39,554 bases of DNA from a virus. Each line of letters begins with the position of its first letter. Position 1 is the stretch's first letter. The position numbers and the translations under genes were made by a program. The stretch is taken from the IMG/VR virus record IMGVR_UViG_3300028625_000003, positions 1 to 39,554 of that record; one strand, written 5' to 3'. Below are positions 5,575-39,554 of the stretch, in pieces. A model generated the notes under the pieces. It saw only the letters and a program-made list of their open reading frames with translations, ran no database searches and had not been told where the DNA came from.

Positions 5575-5603
5575 AGTATAACAGAATATGCCCGATTAGT
5601 CAA
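5575..5603 (-). promoter_or_regulatory. leftward early promoter (sigma70-like)
   Basis: Minus strand reads TTGACT (5603-5598), 17 nt, TATACT (5580-5575), about 35 nt upstream of the RHH gene ATG. Confidence 0.6.
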
Positions 5604-5606
5604 TTT

Positions 5607-5723
5607 GATAGGCCCTTGTTGTCATAGATTGGGGACGATTCTTTACTATGATTTACTGGGCCTATCTCTTATGACTAAACAGTTCCTTCAGTTTTCGCCG
5701 TTTTTTGATAAAATGGGCCTATG
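5607..5723. promoter_or_regulatory. three copies of a 9-bp operator-like motif GGGCCTAT(C/G)
   Basis: GATAGGCCC 5607-5615 (inverted, abutting the leftward -35); GGGCCTATC 5658-5666; GGGCCTATG 5715-5723 (overlapping the repressor start codon). All lie in the AT-rich divergent intergenic region. Confidence 0.5.
5706..5714 (+). promoter_or_regulatory. extended -10 promoter (TGaTAAAAT) placing the transcript start at or next to the repressor ATG (leaderless mRNA candidate)
   Basis: TG at 5706-5707 and TAAAAT at 5709-5714. The ATG at 5721 is 7 nt downstream and no SD precedes it. Confidence 0.4.
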
Positions 5724-6850: not shown

Positions 6851-8323
6851 ATGCCCAACACACTCTACTACGGCGACAATCTGCCGATCTTGCGCCAGCA
6901 CGTCGCCGACGAGTCGGTGGACCTGGTCTACCTGGATCCACCATTCAACTCCAACCGCTCCTACAACGTGCTGTTCAAGGACGAAGGCGGCCAGGAGTCT
7001 GCGGCCCAGATCGAAGCCTTCGCCGACGCTTGGCACTGGGATGCGGTCGCTGAGCGCACCTACCAGGAGCTGGTCACCGAGGCGCCGGCGCACGTGGGTC
7101 AGATGATTGGGGCACTCCGCCAGTTCATCGGTTCCAACCAGATGATGGCCTACCTGGTGATGATGGCCGCGCGGCTGGTGGAGCTGCATCGGGTGCTCAA
7201 AGAAACGGGTAGCCTGTACCTGCACTGCGATCCGACGGCGAGCCACTACTTGAAGGTGCTCATGGATGCTGTATTCGGGGCGACGACGTTCTTGAACGAG
7301 ATTATCTGGTATTATCGCGGGGCCGGAGTGCCCCACGACGCCAGGGCGCACAGACACGACGTTCTGCTGCATTACGCGAAGTCGGCGGGAAAGCAATATT
7401 TCGACCCTGATCCTATCCGGCGCCCGTATGCGCAAGCCACTACCGAGAGATTTAGCCATTACATCGGCAACGTGCGTGGTGGCAGGGATTTTGGTGTTCA
7501 GAAACTCAATCCAAAAGGGAAACACCCGGATGATGTGATTATTGATATACAACCAATAGCTCCTTCCGCGAGGGCTCGTTTGGGCTATCCCACCCAGAAG
7601 CCTGAAGAGTTGCTAACAGAGGTGATTGCGGCTAGCAGCAGAGAAGGAGATATTGTTCTAGACCCCTTCTGCGGCTGCGGCACCGCTATTGTAGTAGCCG
7701 AGCGACTGAAACGGCGGTGGATTGGTATCGACATCACCCACCTGGCCATCTCCTTGATCCGCTACCGGCTGGAGAGCTCCTTCCCGGGGATCCAGTTCGA
7801 GACCGTCGGGGAGCCCGAGGACCTCGGTTCCGCGCGGCAACTCGCCCAGGACGACCCTTACCAGTTCCAATGGTGGGCCCTCTCGCTCCTGCGGGCCAAG
7901 CCCCTGGGTGGGCAAGTGGGCAGCAAGAAAGGCAAGAAGGGTGCCGATCGGGGCATCGATGGGGTGATCAACTTTATCGACGATGCTTCGGGCAAGCCCA
8001 AGCGGGTGCTGGTCCAGGTAAAAGGCGGGGGCGTCAAGAGCGGCGACATTCGGGACTTGCACGGCGTGATCGACCGGGAGCAGGCGGCGATCGGTGTCTT
8101 TGTGACCCTGGAGCCGCCCTCGGGGCCGATGAAAACCGAGGCCGTCTCTGCGGGCTTCTATCACTCGCCTGGCTGGAATCAGGATTATCCCCGGTTGCAG
8201 ATTCTGACGATCGCCGAGCTGCTGGCCGGCGCCAAGGTTGCCATGCCGCCGGCGCACGGGACATTCAGGGAGGCGCCCCGGGCGCAGCAGGAGGATGGGC
8301 AGCAGATGGAGTTGGGGATGTAG
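6851..8323 (+). CDS. beta-class N6-adenine/N4-cytosine DNA methyltransferase fused to a C-terminal Mrr-like (PD-(D/E)xK) restriction-endonuclease-fold domain
   Basis: ORF track 6851..8323. Motif IV DPPF (LVYLDPPFNSN) lies upstream of motif I (VLDPFCGCGT). C-terminus GADRGIDGVINF...RVLVQVKGGG...IRDLHGV...GVFVT resembles an Mrr_cat core. Confidence 0.85.
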   Translation: MPNTLYYGDNLPILRQHVADESVDLVYLDPPFNSNRSYNVLFKDEGGQESAAQIEAFADAWHWDAVAERTYQELVTEAPAHVGQMIGALRQFIGSNQMMAYLVMMAARLVELHRVLKETGSLYLHCDPTASHYLKVLMDAVFGATTFLNEIIWYYRGAGVPHDARAHRHDVLLHYAKSAGKQYFDPDPIRRPYAQATTERFSHYIGNVRGGRDFGVQKLNPKGKHPDDVIIDIQPIAPSARARLGYPTQKPEELLTEVIAASSREGDIVLDPFCGCGTAIVVAERLKRRWIGIDITHLAISLIRYRLESSFPGIQFETVGEPEDLGSARQLAQDDPYQFQWWALSLLRAKPLGGQVGSKKGKKGADRGIDGVINFIDDASGKPKRVLVQVKGGGVKSGDIRDLHGVIDREQAAIGVFVTLEPPSGPMKTEAVSAGFYHSPGWNQDYPRLQILTIAELLAGAKVAMPPAHGTFREAPRAQQEDGQQMELGM

Positions 8324-8343
8324 TGTAGAGGAGGGAGGTCGAG

Positions 8344-8607
8344 ATGGAGTCCGTGATAGGCACAATTGCCAAGGACGGAGTGGTAGTAGTGACTGACATG
8401 GTTATACAGCTTGAGGCTCCTACGCGCGCGGGCTGGGGCGGTTCGTTCGTATTGTATCGACGAAGCATTTCCGCTGGACAATATGAACTGCAATTGCAGG
8501 ATGGCCGCCATGGCGATATCATAATACAAAGAGTTGACAGCGCGCACGTCACTGGTACAAGAGTAGTCCGCTTCATGGGAAACAGATCCCTACTTGGCGG
8601 AGAATAG
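8344..8607 (+). CDS. hypothetical small protein (87 aa) in a low-GC patch
   Basis: ORF track 8344..8607; GGAGGGAGG SD 5 nt upstream. Directly follows the methyltransferase. Confidence 0.55.
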   Translation: MESVIGTIAKDGVVVVTDMVIQLEAPTRAGWGGSFVLYRRSISAGQYELQLQDGRHGDIIIQRVDSAHVTGTRVVRFMGNRSLLGGE

Positions 8608-8651
8608 AATACCGGCCTGGAATCTATTGCTCCGGCGAGAAACTAGCCTCT

Positions 8652-8680
8652 TTGCTTTTCCCGCTTCTTTGTGCTATACT
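8652..8680 (+). promoter_or_regulatory. extended -10 promoter candidate (TTGCTT-17-TGcTATACT)
   Basis: TTGCTT 8652-8657, TG 8672-8673, TATACT 8675-8680. Confidence 0.45.
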
Positions 8681-8687
8681 ATCCCCA

Positions 8688-8718
8688 GCCCTCGGCGCGC
8701 CCCCGCTGCGCCGAGGGC
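8688..8718 (+). promoter_or_regulatory. 11-bp GC hairpin in the leader of the DUF2292-like ORF; its 3' arm contains that ORF's SD
   Basis: GCCCTCGGCGC (8688-8698) pairs with GCGCCGAGGGC (8708-8718), 9-nt loop. GAGGG at 8713-8717 lies 8 nt before TTG 8726. Confidence 0.6.
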
Positions 8719-8725
8719 CTGTCCT

Positions 8726-8914
8726 TTGGAACTGACCGACCAGGAACGCCGCTTGATCGAACTATTGCGCCGGCTCTACTGCGCCGACGTGCACCTCCAC
8801 GTCGAGCGCGGGGTCCTCGCCGTGCGCAGCCGGGTCGAGCAGAGCGTGCACCTCGATCGGCCGCTGGCCGGCCAGTTCGCGGAACTAGAACAAACTGTTG
8901 ACAAACCCCACTAG
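8726..8914 (+). CDS. DUF2292 (YezD)-like small protein (62 aa)
   Basis: Inside ORF 8594..8914 with a TTG start. ELTDQERRLIELLRRLYCADVHLHVERGVLAVRSRVEQSVHL resembles the YezD pattern. Start codon uncertain. Confidence 0.45.
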   Translation: MELTDQERRLIELLRRLYCADVHLHVERGVLAVRSRVEQSVHLDRPLAGQFAELEQTVDKPH

Positions 8915-8926
8915 ATGTGGTATGCT
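8898..8926 (+). promoter_or_regulatory. strong late-operon promoter (TTGACA-17-TGgTATGCT)
   Basis: TTGACA 8898-8903, 17-nt spacer, TG 8918-8919, TATGCT 8921-8926. Confidence 0.7.
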
Positions 8927-8967
8927 ATCCGTAGCTGAACACTACCTGTAGCCCGTATCCGGTCGAA

Positions 8968-9011
8968 CCGGGGGCAGCCTCTAAGGAGGTCTGTCCCCGG
9001 TTTTTGTATTT
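8968..9011 (+). terminator. intrinsic terminator between the late promoter and the first late gene (would end a ~75-nt leader RNA)
   Basis: CCGGGGGCAG (8968-8977) pairs with CTGTCCCCGG (8991-9000), with an inner CCTC/GAGG extension, followed by TTTTTGTATTT (9001-9011). Confidence 0.75.
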
Positions 9012-9026
9012 CAGGAGCCCGCTATC

Positions 9027-9830
9027 ATGCCCACCGCCGAAGCACAAGGCCTGATCCAGCTCGCGATCAACCTCGGGTTCGCCGCGACGATGTGCATCTT
9101 TGTCTTCGTCGCTTACCAGAAGTTGGTCAACCGGCTGGCCGACATCATCGAAGGCAATACCAAGGCGATGACCAACCTGCGCGCGGTCATCGTCGCTTTG
9201 TGTCAGCGCTGGGATAGCGCCGGGCGCCCGGATGCCAAGGTGGATCCGGCGATACCGGATGGCCGGCGCTGGTACGACGACCCGGAGGTGAATCGTGAGC
9301 GCACTCTGTATCTTTCTGCTGGGGATCATTGCCACAGTCGCCGCGCTGGTGGCGTTCGTCAACGTGCTGGTCTCCAAGTTCCTGAGCGGCAAACCCTGGT
9401 GGGAGAACCTGGACGGCCTGGTCAAGCGGATCGTGATGTTCGCGCTGGCCGTCCTCCTCGCCGTCGGCGTGTGGCTGCTCGCGCGCTTTATCCAGTGCGA
9501 GGGTGTGCCGGAATTACAGGCCGTCGTCGAGCTGATCATGGGCGCGGCCCTGCTCTACTTCTTCGGCAAGGCGCAGTACGAGCGCCGCCAGCGGAGCAAG
9601 GCGGAAGAGGCGCCGGGAGGCCCGCGGCGATGACGTTGCCGCCGCTGGATCCGCGGGCCCGCGCCGACCTGGTCCTGATCCGGGCCCTCGTCAAGGGCCT
9701 GCGCAGCCAGGCTATTGACCTGGTCGCCGCGGCCGACGATCTGCTGGCGCGGTTGGTCCCCGACCCGCCGGCGGGGTGGTTGCCGGGAGAGTCCGATGGC
9801 CCTGAAGCCCAAGCACCGCCAGTTCGTTGA
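9027..9830 (+). CDS. first late ORF: only the N-terminal ~89 codons (9027-9294) look coding (YvrJ-like/holin-like single-TM protein), but the frame has no stop until 9830
   Basis: ORF track 9027..9830; AGGAG SD. MPTAEAQGLIQLAINLGFAATMCIFVFVAYQKLVNRLADIIEGNTKAMTNL. The middle third is Arg-rich off-frame-looking sequence that overlaps ORF 9295..9633. Confidence 0.4.
   Translation: MPTAEAQGLIQLAINLGFAATMCIFVFVAYQKLVNRLADIIEGNTKAMTNLRAVIVALCQRWDSAGRPDAKVDPAIPDGRRWYDDPEVNRERTLYLSAGDHCHSRRAGGVRQRAGLQVPERQTLVGEPGRPGQADRDVRAGRPPRRRRVAARALYPVRGCAGITGRRRADHGRGPALLLRQGAVRAPPAEQGGRGAGRPAAMTLPPLDPRARADLVLIRALVKGLRSQAIDLVAAADDLLARLVPDPPAGWLPGESDGPEAQAPPVR
9295..9633 (+). CDS. membrane protein (3 TM, 112 aa; holin-like candidate)
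   Basis: ORF track 9295..9633; GTG after GGAGGTGAATC. High GC3 and clear TM segments; ATGA overlap with the next ORF. Confidence 0.65.
   Translation: MSALCIFLLGIIATVAALVAFVNVLVSKFLSGKPWWENLDGLVKRIVMFALAVLLAVGVWLLARFIQCEGVPELQAVVELIMGAALLYFFGKAQYERRQRSKAEEAPGGPRR
9630..9830 (+). CDS. hypothetical small protein (66 aa)
   Basis: ATG 9630 overlaps the TGA of 9295..9633. High GC3; same frame and stop as ORF 9027..9830. Confidence 0.5.
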   Translation: MTLPPLDPRARADLVLIRALVKGLRSQAIDLVAAADDLLARLVPDPPAGWLPGESDGPEAQAPPVR

Positions 9831-30366: not shown

Positions 30367-30403
30367 TTGACAATCTATCTAGATTCTGGTATAATCTAGA
30401 TAG
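30367..30403 (+). promoter_or_regulatory. perfect consensus sigma70 promoter with an overlapping 10-bp inverted-repeat operator
   Basis: TTGACA 30367-30372, 17-nt spacer, TGg, TATAAT 30390-30395. CTATCTAGAT (30375-30384) and ATCTAGATAG (30394-30403) are exact reverse complements. Confidence 0.8.
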
Positions 30404-30438
30404 TAAAGATGATTGAGCGCAAGCAAGGAGGAGAACCG

Positions 30439-30720
30439 ATGAATCAGAGCAAAGAACAGGCCCAGCAAGAGGCGCGGCAGATGCGGGATAGCAAGGGCGG
30501 TGGCCCGGTTCAAATCCGCTGGATCGATGAGGATGGTGTGGGGCTGGTCTTTTTCGATGCGGCCCCCTGGGAGCTGCGGGTCGAGTGGGCCGTAGCCCCC
30601 CGCGAGCACCACCAATTAAGCCGGGCCGAACAGGCCGCCCTGTTGCGTGCCCAGCCCGATGATATGGCCCGCCACTGGAGCATTCAGGAAGAAGAGCTGT
30701 ACCGCGAATTCTATGGATAA
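30439..30720 (+). CDS. small acidic hypothetical protein (93 aa)
   Basis: Inside ORF 30409..30720; ATG 30439 lies 6 nt after AAGGAGGAG. Confidence 0.65.
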   Translation: MNQSKEQAQQEARQMRDSKGGGPVQIRWIDEDGVGLVFFDAAPWELRVEWAVAPREHHQLSRAEQAALLRAQPDDMARHWSIQEEELYREFYG

Positions 30721-30736
30721 GAAAAGGAGGAACCCA

Positions 30737-31363
30737 ATGAGCAGCACAATCGGCCTGTACTTGGACATCTCGCAGGAAGCCGCGAACCAACTCCGGGACC
30801 GCCTCAACAGGCTGGCCTTTCGCCTGGGATACAGCGCCCGGCGTGGCCCCACTTACGGCGAGGGCAATCTCGCCGCCCTGCTCCAGGGCGTCGACGCTGG
30901 CGATTGCGAGATCGTCCGGCGCCGCTACTGGGCCCGCGACGACAACGACCTCTTTGATGGCCTGATCGGCTGGGCCAATATCTACCCGCCGTCCTCCGCG
31001 GTCGTGGCCGCGGCCCTGGCCGATGTGCCGGAGAAATACCGCGCCGCCATCGAGGGTGCATTTAGCGCCGGGGCTATGGACCTGCGGCCCGTGCCGCCGG
31101 GGGGCATGGCCTCCTGGGGCCGCGTGGACCGCTGGGCCATCGACCTGGCCGAGGACTGGAGCGCCGAATTCGGGCTGGCTATAGATGCCGATCTGTGGGC
31201 CGAGGACGAGTGCCACGACGCCGCATACAGCTTCGCCCTGGATGTCGCCACCGCCACCGACCAGGAACTGCAGGCCAGGCTGGCCGGCGACCCCACCGCG
31301 GGCCAGGGCACCGCCTGGGGCATCGACGAGGAGACGGACCGGGCATGGTACGCGGCCCGCTAG
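30737..31363 (+). CDS. acidic hypothetical protein (208 aa) with a possible N-terminal ribbon-helix-helix
   Basis: Inside ORF 30647..31363; ATG 30737 after AAAGGAGGAA. N-terminus TIGLYLDISQEAANQLRDRLNRLAFRLG...NLAALLQGV. Confidence 0.65.
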   Translation: MSSTIGLYLDISQEAANQLRDRLNRLAFRLGYSARRGPTYGEGNLAALLQGVDAGDCEIVRRRYWARDDNDLFDGLIGWANIYPPSSAVVAAALADVPEKYRAAIEGAFSAGAMDLRPVPPGGMASWGRVDRWAIDLAEDWSAEFGLAIDADLWAEDECHDAAYSFALDVATATDQELQARLAGDPTAGQGTAWGIDEETDRAWYAAR

Positions 31364-31375
31364 TCGCCGTCCCTC

Positions 31376-31411
31376 AAGCCCCTGCCCCCCGCGGGCGGGG
31401 GCTTTGCTTTG
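31376..31411 (+). terminator. intrinsic terminator closing the two-gene plus-strand cassette
   Basis: GCCCC(T)GCCC...GGGC(G)GGGGC forms a ~10-12-bp GC stem followed by TTTGCTTTG. Confidence 0.7.
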
Positions 31412-34802: not shown

Positions 34803-35079
34803 CGGCGGCCTCCAGCATTGTTTCGTCTGGTTTCCCAGATGCAACAACGCGCTCCTGGTACGCCGCCAGCAGTTGCTGGCCGGCGCGGAAGAAATCGCCG
34901 CCGGTGGTCTGGACCGCGGCGCGGACCTGGTCGCGGGTAGCCACCAGGCAGCGCTTGAATTCAACCTCGCCGATCGGCAGTCGGCAATAGTAGTCGCCGG
35001 CGATGAGCAGGACCGCCGTGGCCACGTTGTAGTAGCAAAGTTCCAAGGCCCGCGCAAACGTCAACGGTCTATCGCGCAT
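34795..35079 (-). CDS. hypothetical protein (94 aa)
   Basis: Inside ORF 34795..35310; ATG 35079 after GGAGGGGG. Confidence 0.55.
   Translation of the reverse strand: MRDRPLTFARALELCYYNVATAVLLIAGDYYCRLPIGEVEFKRCLVATRDQVRAAVQTTGGDFFRAGQQLLAAYQERVVASGKPDETMLEAADA
34817..34848 (-). promoter_or_regulatory. conserved GAAA-tetraloop hairpin element, copy C
   Basis: Minus strand reads GTTGTTGCATCTGG-GAAA-CCAGACGAAACAAT. Ends 14 nt before ATG 34802 with GGAGG in between. Confidence 0.65.
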
Positions 35080-35897
35080 CACGCCCCCTCCGTTGTTCCG
35101 TCTGGTTTCCCACCCGCACCAACCCACCCCACCTTTTCCCGCCAGGCGGCGAGTGCAGCCGCGCAGCCCTCGGGGGGCGGATAGTCCCAGCGTACGGCGT
35201 CGCGCAATACATACCGCGCGATGCGTTCGCAGATTGTGCCCAAATCTGGAATGCGAGCGATCTTGTCGCTGCGATCGGCGTGGTACCCAGGATTGCCGGC
35301 CATGTGCCACAGCACGGCCCGCATGGCCCCCAGGTCCTGGGCCCGCAGCGCCCGGGCCAGCTCCTGCACGGTCGCCTCGCGCAGTTTCCGGGCCTCCTCT
35401 TTCCGCTGCTCCTCAGCCGCCGCCCGCTCCGCCGCCCGCTCCGCCGTTGCCTTCTCCCGGCAGGAGGAGCAGAGGAAGTCGCGGTGGTCGATGGTCCCCT
35501 CGTAGGGGGCAAAGTCGCTCGCCGGCTTGGACTGGTCGCAGCGCGTGCACGTCTTGCGCGGTTCCGGCGGGGACGGCGGCGCGGCCGCGGCCTTTTTCGC
35601 GGCGTGATGCCGGCGCACCGCGGTCACGCGATGCTGCTTCCCACACTCCCGGCAGAAGAGCTGGCGGCCCCCGACGTTGCCCCGGGCGAGGTTCTTGCTG
35701 AATTCAGTGATAGGCTTGACCACGCCGCACTCCACACAGCGGCGGGTCTCCTCTCCCAGCACCTCGACGGCCTCTACCGGGGGAGCGGGCTCGACAGGCG
35801 CATAGTCGGCGCATCCCGAGCAGGCCTGGGGCGTGGGGAGAACGTTGCGGCGGTCGCAGTTCCGGCCATGGCGGTGGCGGCAATCGGCGCTGGCCAT
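35079..35897 (-). CDS. Cys-rich protein with two CxxC-(22-24 aa)-CxxC zinc-ribbon repeats and a helical C-terminal domain (regulator candidate)
   Basis: Part of ORF 35079..36554. ATG 35897, with GTG 35762 as an alternative start. Repeats CVECGVVKPITEF...CRECG and CTRCDQSKPASDF...CSSC. Confidence 0.55.
   Translation of the reverse strand: MASADCRHRHGRNCDRRNVLPTPQACSGCADYAPVEPAPPVEAVEVLGEETRRCVECGVVKPITEFSKNLARGNVGGRQLFCRECGKQHRVTAVRRHHAAKKAAAAPPSPPEPRKTCTRCDQSKPASDFAPYEGTIDHRDFLCSSCREKATAERAAERAAAEEQRKEEARKLREATVQELARALRAQDLGAMRAVLWHMAGNPGYHADRSDKIARIPDLGTICERIARYVLRDAVRWDYPPPEGCAAALAAWREKVGWVGAGGKPDGTTEGA
35092..35123 (-). promoter_or_regulatory. conserved GAAA-tetraloop hairpin element, copy D
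   Basis: Minus strand reads GTTGGTGCGGGTGG-GAAA-CCAGACGGAACAAC. Ends 12 nt before ATG 35079 with GGAGGGGG in between. Confidence 0.6.
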
Positions 35898-36587: not shown

Positions 36588-37865
36588 TCACTCCTTGAAC
36601 CGGAAACGCGGGCCGTCGAAGAAGAGGGTCCCCTCTCCCAGGGGGCCATTTCTATTCTTGGCGATGGCCCAGTTGACGATGTCGAAGCCGGCCGAGGTGG
36701 CTTTCTGGCCCTTGGCGTCCAGCTCGTTCCACAGAAACACGACCGTGTGGGCGTCCTGTTCATACTGCCCCGACTCCCGCAGGGAGCGCAGCGTGGGACG
36801 CTCGCCTTCGCCGTGCAGCCGATTGAGCTGGGAGACGGCGACCAGCGGCACCCGCAGCTCCATCGCCAGGCGCTTCAGGCCCTTCGAGATGTTCGTGTTC
36901 TGCTCCACCAGGCTCTTGCCGCCGGCGTCCATGATCTGCACGTAGTCGACGACCACCAGGTCCAGGGAGCTCCCCGCCTGCCGGCGGAGGGCCTCCGCCC
37001 GGAGAGCCTCCGCGTCGAACGGCCCGGGCAGAAAGGCCACCGCGCCCGGCCACGCCTCCACTTCGCCCAGGCGGCCGGCCACGCGGGCCTTGCCGTCCTC
37101 GGACAGCAAAGCCAACTCGCACGCGTCGTCCCAGCCAAGCCCGGCCAGCCGGCACAGCCGCCGGCGGTAGAGATCGTCGGGGGGCATTTCCAGGGTGGCA
37201 AACAGGACCTGCCGGCCGTCCTGGGCATTATGGTCGGCCAGCATCTCGGCCAGGGCGGTTTTCCCCACCCCCGGCCTGCCGGCCAGGATCAGGAAGGCGC
37301 CGGGCCGCAGCATGATCCGGGCGTCCAGGGAGGGGACGCCGAAGCGCGGCCGCGGGGCTTGCCGGTCGACCCGCATCTCCTCCAGCAGGGCGCTGGCGAC
37401 GGCTTTGCTCTCGACGGCGCCGCCGCTCGCGACACCTTGCTCCTCCCGCAGGGTTTTCAGCGCCTGGGCGAACGGGTCGCCGGCGGTGTAGGCCAGGGAG
37501 CCTAGCGTTGCGAGCGTGCCCAGGTACCGGCGGGCCCGCGCCGCGTGGGCCACCTGCGTGGCGTAATACTCGGCGTGCACCGGCACGGGCGCGGCGTCGA
37601 CCAGGGCGCCGAGCGCCGCGGGCCCGCCCACCTCGTCCAGCTGCCCGCGCGCCTCGAGTTCGCCGGCCAGCGTGGCCAGGTCACACGGGACCTGGCGCTC
37701 CAGGAGGGCAAGAGCCGCCTCGTAGATCGCGCGCCGGCGGGAATCGTAGAAGTCGGCGGGCCGCAGCAGCGGGCTGACGAACAGAATCACGTCCCGGTGG
37801 GTCAAGAGGCACCCCAACACGGCCCGCTCCGCCTCGTCGGCTCGCGGCAGATCGTTACGCGCCAC
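36588..37865 (-). CDS. dnaB: replicative DNA helicase (DnaB family)
   Basis: Inside ORF 36588..38117; GTG 37865 after GGAGGAGG. N-domain AERAVLGCLL, Walker A GRPGVGKTALA, Walker B LVVVDYVQ. Confidence 0.85.
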   Translation of the reverse strand: MARNDLPRADEAERAVLGCLLTHRDVILFVSPLLRPADFYDSRRRAIYEAALALLERQVPCDLATLAGELEARGQLDEVGGPAALGALVDAAPVPVHAEYYATQVAHAARARRYLGTLATLGSLAYTAGDPFAQALKTLREEQGVASGGAVESKAVASALLEEMRVDRQAPRPRFGVPSLDARIMLRPGAFLILAGRPGVGKTALAEMLADHNAQDGRQVLFATLEMPPDDLYRRRLCRLAGLGWDDACELALLSEDGKARVAGRLGEVEAWPGAVAFLPGPFDAEALRAEALRRQAGSSLDLVVVDYVQIMDAGGKSLVEQNTNISKGLKRLAMELRVPLVAVSQLNRLHGEGERPTLRSLRESGQYEQDAHTVVFLWNELDAKGQKATSAGFDIVNWAIAKNRNGPLGEGTLFFDGPRFRFKE

Positions 37866-39048: not shown

Positions 39049-39212
39049 GGTACCCTCCGGCGGCCGGCCATACTGCGGAGCAGCTGGTCTAGGCAGCAGA
39101 TCACGTCCCAGCGGTGCAGGCGATGGCTGCCGCAGCGGGGGCAGAGGGACGGGCGGATGTAATAGGCGATATCGCCGGGGCCATAGGTCGTACCGCAGTG
39201 GGGACAGAACAT
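39045..39212 (-). CDS. zinc-ribbon protein (55 aa)
   Basis: Inside ORF 39045..39233; ATG 39212 overlaps the stop of the DUF5131 gene. MFCPHCG...CPRCG. Confidence 0.55.
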   Translation of the reverse strand: MFCPHCGTTYGPGDIAYYIRPSLCPRCGSHRLHRWDVICCLDQLLRSMAGRRRVP

Positions 39213-39554
39213 CAGCGCAGCTCCTCCGGCCATTCCTGGCGCAGCTCGCCCGGCCAGTAGGGCCGGAGATTGTTCTTCATAAAGACCGGGATCTCGTAGC
39301 GCGCCGCGGCGTCAAGGATTGGGTCAATCCACGCTGCGGAGGGGGCGTGCTGCTTGGCCCCGGCCCCGGTATAAGCCCCGACGATGACCCACTCGATATT
39401 CCACAGGTTGAGGTCTGGCGGCGGCCCCAGCAACGGTTCGAACGAGAGAAAGTGCGGGGCCTCGACCTGTTCAAAAAGCGCCAGCTTCCGCGCGTCCAGG
39501 CTCGGGACTTCCCCGGTTAGCGTCAAGCCGGCCCAGGCGTCGAGCGGAAAGGTC
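39212..39554 (-). CDS. DUF5131 / Gp37-Gp68 family protein, C-terminal part (same gene as 1..450; 39428..39554 duplicates 1..127)
   Basis: ORF track 39212..39526. The frame is open to the window end and continues into nt 128..450 after circularisation. Confidence 0.8.
   Translation of the reverse strand, partial: TFPLDAWAGLTLTGEVPSLDARKLALFEQVEAPHFLSFEPLLGPPPDLNLWNIEWVIVGAYTGAGAKQHAPSAAWIDPILDAAARYEIPVFMKNNLRPYWPGELRQEWPEELR
39428..39554. repeat. Terminal direct repeat, copy 2
   Basis: Identical to nt 1-127. Confidence 0.97.

Follow-up and report, generated by a model that had tools for sequence, protein, structure and literature searches.

How can a phage express its late genes when a strong intrinsic terminator stands between a near-consensus promoter and the first late start codon? 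This question is raised by the IMG/VR virus record IMGVR_UViG_3300028625_000003, which was analysed as a single stretch of 39,554 bp with a G+C content of 67.6% (hereafter referred to as the window). A DUF5131 gene is split over both ends of the window, pointing to a circular or complete, phage-like genome, and near-identical contigs from four other samples (L048-L051; SRR8476429, ERZ27257506 and JGI 3300009838 are among the sources of such contigs) show that its sequence is not an assembly oddity. Besides a minus-strand arm with replication-type genes, the genome has a plus-strand arm (Table 1), which starts with an XRE-type HTH gene, two membrane ORFs, an MTase-REase fusion (6851-8323) and a low-GC gap, and continues with a small ORF, a holin-like gene (9027), terS (9796), terL (10268) and ~19-20 kb of structural genes. 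The first late gene matches the holin family phrog_4898 (E = 2.6e-4; an intact 90-aa version of the protein is present in L049 and L050) and the terminase gene matches Terminase_2 (E = 3.5e-23); no integrase is recognised in the genome. Among bacterial genomes, relatives of the TerL protein are found only in prophages in Vicinamibacterales (Acidobacteriota) MAGs, at 46-61% identity, and the GenBank phage collection, searched at the DNA and protein levels, contains no match to the region, to TerL or to either type of small protein described below. Our best explanation, to which we give an even chance of being right, is that the late promoter is gated by antitermination, following the logic of lambda PR'-tR', and that this gate is part of a conserved regulatory cassette.

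Table 1. Features of the window discussed in the text, with positions counted from its first base.
Feature	Position	Strand	Description
Minus-strand arm		-	Replication-type genes: DnaB-like helicase (36588-37865), replication initiator, HNH nucleases
Plus-strand arm	5721-29079	+	XRE-type HTH gene through structural genes
Promoter P2	8652..8680	+	Weak -35 TTGCTT, 17-bp spacer, extended -10 TGcTATACT; predicted start A8687
5' hairpin of the P2 transcript	8688..8718	+	-27.9 kcal/mol, z = -4.6; followed by U-rich CUGUCCUUUGG
Small ORF	8726..8914	+	62 aa, TTG start, stop codon TAG (8912-8914) inside the P3 spacer
Promoter P3	8898..8926	+	TTGACA-17-TGgTATGCT, near-consensus sigma-70-type with extended -10: -35 TTGACA (8898-8903), 17-bp spacer, TG (8918-8919), -10 TATGCT (8921-8926); predicted start A8933
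P3 leader	8933..8967	+	35 nt; contains the -10-like AACACT (8938-8943)
Mini-hairpin	8959..8971	+	CCGG-TCGAA-CCGG; candidate antiterminator or protein-binding element; its 3' half (8968-8971) is the first four bases of the terminator 5' arm
Intrinsic terminator	8968..9011	+	14-pair hairpin (8968-9000) with one bulge: 5' arm CCGGGGGCAGCCTC (8968-8981), loop TAAG, 3' arm GAGGTCTGTCCCCGG (8986-9000); then T-tract TTTTTGTATTT (9001-9011)
SD and first late gene	9013..9299	+	SD AGGAG (9013-9017), ATG at 9027; holin-like small membrane protein

P3 matches the consensus at 10 of 12 positions in addition to its extended -10 element, and is one of only three promoters in the window that reach at least 10/12 and carry a TG motif. 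The other two are 5603(-), which serves the early arm, and 30367(+), a perfect 12/12 match; two weaker extended -10 promoters are found at 5687 and 8652. The terminator downstream of P3 folds, together with its flanks, at -32.1 kcal/mol (z = -5.9, with 0 of 200 shuffles as good) and is the only site on both strands of the 39.5-kb window to pass a strict RNAfold-based filter (hairpin of -14 kcal/mol or lower that ends no more than 2 nt from a run of at least four Ts, with at least six Ts in 10); another terminator scan overlooks it on account of the bulge and a limit on the loop. A first-pass annotation of this DNA had described both elements and likened them to lambda PR'-tR'. P3, its start near 8933, the hairpin, the T-tract and the 16-nt distance to the first late ATG are all as it placed them, and the presence of a constitutive-type promoter and a terminator upstream of the late genes supports the comparison. 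It had also named a promoter downstream of 9011 as the competing source of late transcripts; our promoter scan finds neither a consensus nor an extended -10 promoter in the interval from 9011 to the late genes. Since no promoter-like site is seen there and the T-tract ends only 16 nt from the ATG, transcription of the late operon must pass the hairpin, and RNA terminated at this site is predicted to be 75-77 nt long in the window.

Diverged relatives of the region were reached by searching metagenomic contigs with the small protein and the holin-like protein, and they belong to three protein lineages: that of the window, with L054, L052, L058 and the more distant L056/L057; that of L059/L060; and that of L061, L063 and L064. 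L062 carries the terminator only. The whole cassette is kept in seven to at least eight independent relatives across the three lineages, in an order that is seen in every contig of sufficient length: P2, a 5' hairpin with a purine-rich 3' arm, a TTG or GTG start, the small ORF, P3 over the end of this ORF, a 24-35 nt leader, the terminator, an SD and the first late gene. Promoter, leader and terminator recur in L052, L054, L058, L059/L060, L061, L063 and L064. The conserved unit, of ~360 bp, extends beyond the part described in the first-pass annotation. It is always located immediately 5' of the first late gene, but the genes around it vary. Upstream are the MTase in the window, a kinase in L059, a PhD/ParE pair in L063 and, in L052 and L054, early genes that are divergently transcribed; downstream, the first late gene is holin-like in the window, L058, L059, L061 and L062 and a different one in L052 and L063. 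Judged by these neighbourhoods, the cassette acts like a portable module with a fixed place ahead of the late operon.

Within this module, the P3 spacer is 17 bp in all cases and the -10 carries a TGn extension, with TTGACA, TTGACG or TAGACA as -35. P3 overlaps the end of the small ORF in all relatives, among them L056, whose small protein has 54% identity. In two of the lineages the ORF stops within the P3 spacer; in the L061 lineage, its stop codon corresponds to +4 to +6 of the P3 transcript. In the terminator, the base CCGGG/CCCGG is constant, stem positions 6, 8, 9 and 10 differ in both arms, and the upper part of the stem is wholly different (CCUC/GAGG, CUCCAC/GUGGAG, CCCC/GGGG, CGAUCCC/GGGGUCG) or absent; a run of 4-6 Ts always follows. 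Even when given a non-structural alignment, RNAalifold reports double changes in 5 of the 14 pairs. Hence the element combines a G+C-rich hairpin, an adjoining U-tract and compensatory change, as an intrinsic terminator should. The AAGGAGG sequence that had been noticed in the terminator loop is there in the window and is absent from L052, L061 and L062, and so it is not a conserved part of the design.

Two further sets of relatives depart from this order. L056/L057 keep the small protein and P3 and have a different leader, with no mini-hairpin and no obvious terminator within the 230 nt available; this leader gives a full-length match to the c-di-GMP-II aptamer at 34.4 bits, which is below the gathering score (E = 1e-4 to 7e-6). 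This riboswitch-like sequence points to the P3 leader as a slot in which different devices control elongation. In L001 and L027, which are more distant TerL relatives, a promoter, a small ORF and a strong terminator precede the late genes and there is no second promoter, so that read-through would be obligatory there too. Obligatory read-through of a terminator ahead of the late genes therefore seems to be common in this group of phages.

The product of the gene within the cassette is expected to accumulate slowly. P2, its predicted promoter, is located ~245 nt upstream of P3 and has equivalents at the same place in L052, L054, L058, L056, L059 and L063. The predicted start is one base ahead of the 5' hairpin, the 3' arm of which holds GAGGG, 7-8 nt before the TTG and the sole SD-like sequence for the small ORF. 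This hairpin, including its purine-rich 3' arm, is kept in L052, L054, L058, L056, L059, L063 and L064 with stem sequences that are all different. The ORF itself has a clear coding signal (GC3 frame). The P2 mRNA is predicted to be monocistronic and ~320 nt long (8687 to ~9007), with a hairpin at both ends: the terminator doubles as the 3' end of this transcript, a role overlooked in the first-pass annotation.

The small proteins are 57-68 aa long across the relatives. Homologs of the window protein (P0001-P0005) form a tiny family, with three clusters at 90% identity among 5.8 billion proteins and two representatives at 50% identity (E < 1e-10) among 1.84 billion. The window protein has no Pfam match even at E <= 10 and no PHROG match, and sequence searches of the PDB return nothing or designed coiled coils only. 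In the third lineage, two positional homologs, P0012 and P0013, reach 24.2 and 22.6 bits with the DUF2292 model (PF10055), for which the gathering score is 22, and hhalign aligns the window group with the P0012-14 group at 88.9% probability (E = 2.4e-6, 31 columns). The window protein can therefore be called DUF2292-like indirectly, via relatives above the Pfam threshold, which lends support to the same label in the first-pass annotation. The small ORFs of L001, L027 and L059 give no significant hhalign match to the family and are considered positional analogs. No nucleic-acid-, DNA- or RNAP-binding domain is detectable in the small protein, and AlphaFold2, run on the sequence alone and with five sequences, predicts one long helix of 39 residues from an alignment too shallow to trust. 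A literature search on DUF2292 and YezD did not find a functional study, and to our knowledge RNA binding by DUF2292 proteins has never been demonstrated.

Between P3 and the terminator, the leader is under purifying selection: among the four sequences of the window lineage that were compared, variation affects 8 of 43 leader columns, compared with 28 of the 50 third-codon positions in the neighbouring ORF (Fisher p = 2.7e-4). Conservation peaks at +21 to +43. A short CCGG-N5-CCGG mini-hairpin of 4-5 bp (-4.6 to -5.3 kcal/mol) occurs at the same position in all three lineages. Its stem is invariant and so provides no covariation, and its loop differs by lineage, being TCGAA in the window, TAAAT in L059 and ATGAG in L061, L063 and L064. 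The motif on its own is not rare in the window, with 11 observed occurrences against ~6 expected; in combination with CCCGG and a T-run it is absent from all other loci compared, including 47 TerL-related loci. Rfam covariance models give no gathering-level match over 8300-9100 and, with permissive filters, only chance-level matches on the P2 hairpin and none on 8898-9026.

How might these elements work together? From the sequence elements and their conservation we infer termination, its relief and the factor responsible. A sigma-70-type host RNA polymerase would start constitutively at P3 (~8933) and by default stop at the intrinsic terminator, with release at ~9007-9009 of a ~75-nt RNA, keeping the ~20-kb holin, terminase and structural operon off. 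Meanwhile, the 62-aa DUF2292-like protein would accumulate slowly, owing to the weak P2, the TTG start codon and the hairpin that hides the ribosome-binding site, and once accumulated it would suppress termination, thereby acting as a timer. In the proposed model, the protein binds the conserved leader and stabilises the CCGG-N5-CCGG mini-hairpin, which would sequester the bottom four bases of the terminator 5' arm so that the stem cannot reach the U-tract; such an action at the RNA level could be either passive, as in RAT/ANTAR systems, or N/boxB-like. The DUF2292-like protein is the likeliest candidate for the antitermination factor, because its gene is the only one that travels with P3 and the terminator, and because a weak -35, an occluded SD and a TTG or GTG start suit a slow timer. 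The zinc-ribbon protein encoded at 35079..35897, offered as another candidate in the first-pass annotation, is dropped, as its matches are to Lar-like, HNH and endonuclease VII families and nothing connects it to the cassette. We also rejected repression of P3 by the HTH protein as a general mechanism (the putative operator GGGCCTAT is absent from P3, and L052 and L054 lack this particular HTH gene), as well as translation-coupled attenuation, since the distance from the ORF stop to the mini-hairpin is not conserved (45 nt in the window lineage and ~11 nt in the L061 lineage).

Whether the protein would act on RNA or on DNA bears on the first of the rival explanations, in which the small protein or another phage protein, working in the manner of the Q type (lambda Q, 21Q, 82Q or AlpA-like), binds P3 DNA and is loaded onto a sigma-paused RNA polymerase, making it terminator-resistant. 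As with Q and PR', the regulator gene abuts a constitutive promoter followed by a terminator, and the linkage of P3 to the ORF persists in L056 despite its different leader. In the window lineage, there is also a TG and, at +6 to +11, a hexamer resembling a -10 element that carries the key A2 and T6 (AACACT, AATACT or CATACT). However, no such A2/T6 hexamer is found in the leaders of L059 or L061-L064, conservation peaks beyond the expected position of a pause element, the P3 spacers share no motif across lineages, and family searches give no Q, AlpA or HTH match, with no Q-family or AlpA-like protein among the non-structural ORFs by Pfam and PHROG. Size is a further objection: Q proteins are well over 100 aa, far above the 57-68 aa of the candidate. 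AlpA, with functional residues numbered up to 142, is likewise larger, even though it illustrates that non-homologous proteins can use this mechanism (PMC9371919). Consequently, we consider the Q-type reading quite unlikely and think that the candidate more probably acts on RNA than by Q-like loading on DNA. This preference follows from the position of the conservation peak, from the bases that the mini-hairpin shares with the terminator 5' arm and from its loop, which tracks the protein lineage as boxB tracks N; L056/L057, which keep the protein and P3 with another leader, argue against the mini-hairpin as the target of the protein. Of the reading in the first-pass annotation, the gate logic and the DUF2292-like candidate hold, while a strict Q-type factor is doubtful given the lineage-restricted hexamer and a ~60-aa protein in which no DNA-binding domain is seen.

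Late transcripts could in principle arise by leaky termination alone, and intrinsic terminators are rarely 100% efficient. In this alternative, which strikes us as unlikely, no dedicated antiterminator exists; the hairpin serves mainly to end and stabilise the P2 mRNA, with an insulating or attenuating role, and the late operon is expressed through leak from the very strong P3 or through a general host-polymerase/Nus change. The terminator does end the P2 unit, L001 and L027 have a promoter, ORF and terminator without P3, and, as the first-pass annotation had remarked, no antiterminator is recognisable, in that no ORF of the genome matches Q, N or an annotated antiterminator family. On the other hand, a terminator that folds at -32 kcal/mol, carries a T5 run and stands 16 nt ahead of the most-needed genes would be costly unless regulated, P3 sits between the ORF and the terminator in every member, and both the purifying selection on the leader and the conserved mini-hairpin are left unexplained. 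We see even less reason to regard the terminated RNA (~65-78 nt) as a trans-acting sRNA resembling lambda 6S or StxS, be it besides or instead of gating, and think this improbable. It would have a conserved single-stranded 5' region followed by a Rho-independent terminator, as well as a seed conserved within the lineage, and there is a precedent in StxS, a short PR' transcript that is reported to be a regulatory sRNA (PMC7547250). Yet the seeds differ among the three lineages, no target in the phage genome rises above shuffled seeds (the strongest duplex with a non-self site reaches -43.1 kcal/mol, and the shuffles reach -34.7 to -43.7 kcal/mol), and transcription of the late genes would still lack an explanation.

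Antitermination gating, as preferred here, has several known counterparts. The cassette resembles the lambdoid PR'-tR'/Q system with its 6S RNA and the AlpA-PalpB-tB system of P. aeruginosa, as a constitutive sigma-70 promoter precedes a late or lysis operon, an intrinsic terminator would give a short abortive RNA, the regulator gene adjoins the promoter upstream and lysis genes come first. In contrast to lambda, where the terminator is located at +194, the terminator is found here at +36 to +79, and unlike in the Q and AlpA systems there is no Q or AlpA homolog, the pause element is confined to one lineage, a DUF2292-like protein of ~60 aa is the candidate factor and the terminator also ends the mRNA of the regulator. 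With the BglG/SacY/LicT-RAT and ANTAR (AmiR, NasR, EutV) systems, it shares a small weak hairpin that uses bases of the terminator 5' arm and that is conserved in sequence while the remaining terminator drifts; for CAT and ANTAR, an RNA-binding module of ~55-60 aa would suffice. The differences are that no protein with a CAT, PRD or ANTAR domain is found by Pfam, that a single 4-5-bp hairpin is present and that the operon is a phage late rather than a catabolic one. Lambda N/nut is similar in having a small basic protein and, between promoter and terminator, a short boxB stem with a 5-nt loop that differs between phage lineages along with the protein, whereas here no boxA-like element is identified, the protein gene is upstream of the site with a separate promoter and there is no similarity to N. 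Xp10 p7 and gp39 of Thermus phage P23-45 are also very small phage proteins; with them, the host polymerase is reported to pass intrinsic terminators, and no specific nucleic-acid site is required (PMC3351154). These proteins have no homology to the candidate and act genome-wide with inhibition of promoters, and a site-independent model would leave the conserved leader unexplained. Finally, StxS of the Shiga-toxin phage PR' is likewise a short terminated transcript from an always-on late promoter, in contrast to which no target above shuffled controls is seen in the phage genome here.

If the proposed gate is correct, it would provide a first function for the DUF2292-like proteins of these phages, add a distinct and very small factor to N, Q, put, p7, gp39 and AlpA, and offer a first way to approach the timing of gene expression in phages whose nearest TerL relatives from bacterial genomes occur in Vicinamibacterales (Acidobacteriota) prophages. 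More tentatively, and with the balance in our view tilting against it, DUF2292-like mini-proteins may constitute a new class of antiterminators that work in a portable late-timing cassette in Acidobacteriota-type hosts, with a c-di-GMP-II-like riboswitch occupying the slot in a sister lineage. With its compact size and consensus sigma-70 signals, the cassette is directly testable in a heterologous host and, if it works, it would be a ready-made timer for synthetic biology.

Pattern searches were extended beyond these relatives. An exact-pattern scan with the 20-nt leader core and a scan with a second leader pattern find no match in viral contigs, and the lone metagenome match to the leader core, in L055, is within an 881-aa ORF and is regarded as a chance match. 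A loose P3+AGCTGAA pattern returns 104 loci, with the cassette in none; two unrelated contigs among them, L065 and L149, have the promoter-then-terminator layout only.

Layouts with a near-consensus promoter and, 3' of it, a strong intrinsic terminator just ahead of the first late gene are also found in two loci of large terminase subunit (TerL) relatives with 64-65% identity (L001, 828-1160, and L027, 2445-2780). Here, the promoter is followed by an ORF of 65-70 aa, the terminator and then the first late gene; a second promoter is absent from both stretches, and the similarity of the small ORFs to that of the window is not significant. In a further TerL relative (L019, 4722-4960), the late region is preceded by a consensus promoter with a small gene behind it, whose product of about 67 aa resembles an excisionase/MerR-type HTH protein when judged by eye. 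Different small proteins may fill the regulator slot ahead of the late operon. The pattern TTGACA-17-TGnTAnnnT also occurs in two viral contigs that are unrelated and lower in GC content (L065, 5455-5570, and L149, 121-230). Their start falls at AGCTGAA, a terminator follows at about +62 to +66, and the unit in L149 lies just 5' of a structural gene. Promoter-then-terminator units ahead of late genes may be widespread.

In a Vicinamibacterales prophage region (L045, 4446-4615), a promoter-like site precedes a pair of long hairpins that exclude each other; the second terminates in TTTTTGTTTG, and the arrangement is attenuator-like. A transposase remnant adjoins this region. L056 carries a sister cassette whose small protein (P0005) is 54% identical to that of the window. 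Its leader (705-787), directly 3' of P3, the promoter that in the window precedes the terminator, matches the c-di-GMP-II riboswitch aptamer model (RF01786, Rfam) over its full length; the score of 34.4 bits falls short of the gathering score (53.5), and E = 1e-4 to 7e-6. This leader, identical in sequence in L057, sits where the window carries its 35-nt leader and terminator.

Several further features surround the cassette or lie elsewhere in the window (table).

Coordinates of further features in the window
Feature	Position	Strand	Remark
Early leftward promoter	5603-5575	-	TTGACT-17-TGtTATACT
Extended -10	5706-5714		TGATAAAAT; upstream of XRE HTH gene
Low-GC stretch	8324-8650		~50%; 3' of MTase-REase fusion
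Holin-like region ORFs	9027-9299 / 9295-9633		
Plus-strand island	30367-31402	+	within minus-strand arm
Two unknown genes	30439-30720, 30737-31363	+	behind 30367-30395 promoter

In the low-GC stretch, the upstream half of P3 recurs in degenerate form (ACAAAGAGTTGACA at 8526-8539, then TGGTACAAG), without the -7 T, and the 87-aa ORF of this stretch (8344-8607) has no family match. The promoter of the plus-strand island (30367-30395) matches the consensus at 12/12 positions, has a TG and drives the two genes; the hairpin GCCCCCCGCGGGCGGGGGC plus TTTGCTTTGC is located 3' of them. The region 5575-5722 looks like a divergent switch. The window contains four exact copies of GGGCCTAT, and three of them fall within this region (5608-, 5658+ and 5715+). 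If transcribed from the extended -10, the XRE HTH gene (ATG 5721) would be leaderless.

No integrase was recognised in the window. A DUF5131 gene is divided between its two ends (1-450 and 39212-39553, minus strand), an indication that the genome, at about 39.5 kb, is circular or complete. Finally, a G run at about 9284 is one G shorter in the window and the near-identical contig L048 than in L049 and L050; because of this missing G, the GTGA stop/start overlap is lost and the holin-like ORF extends to 9830 in the window. The difference is due either to an error in assembly or to a frameshift variant that occurs naturally.
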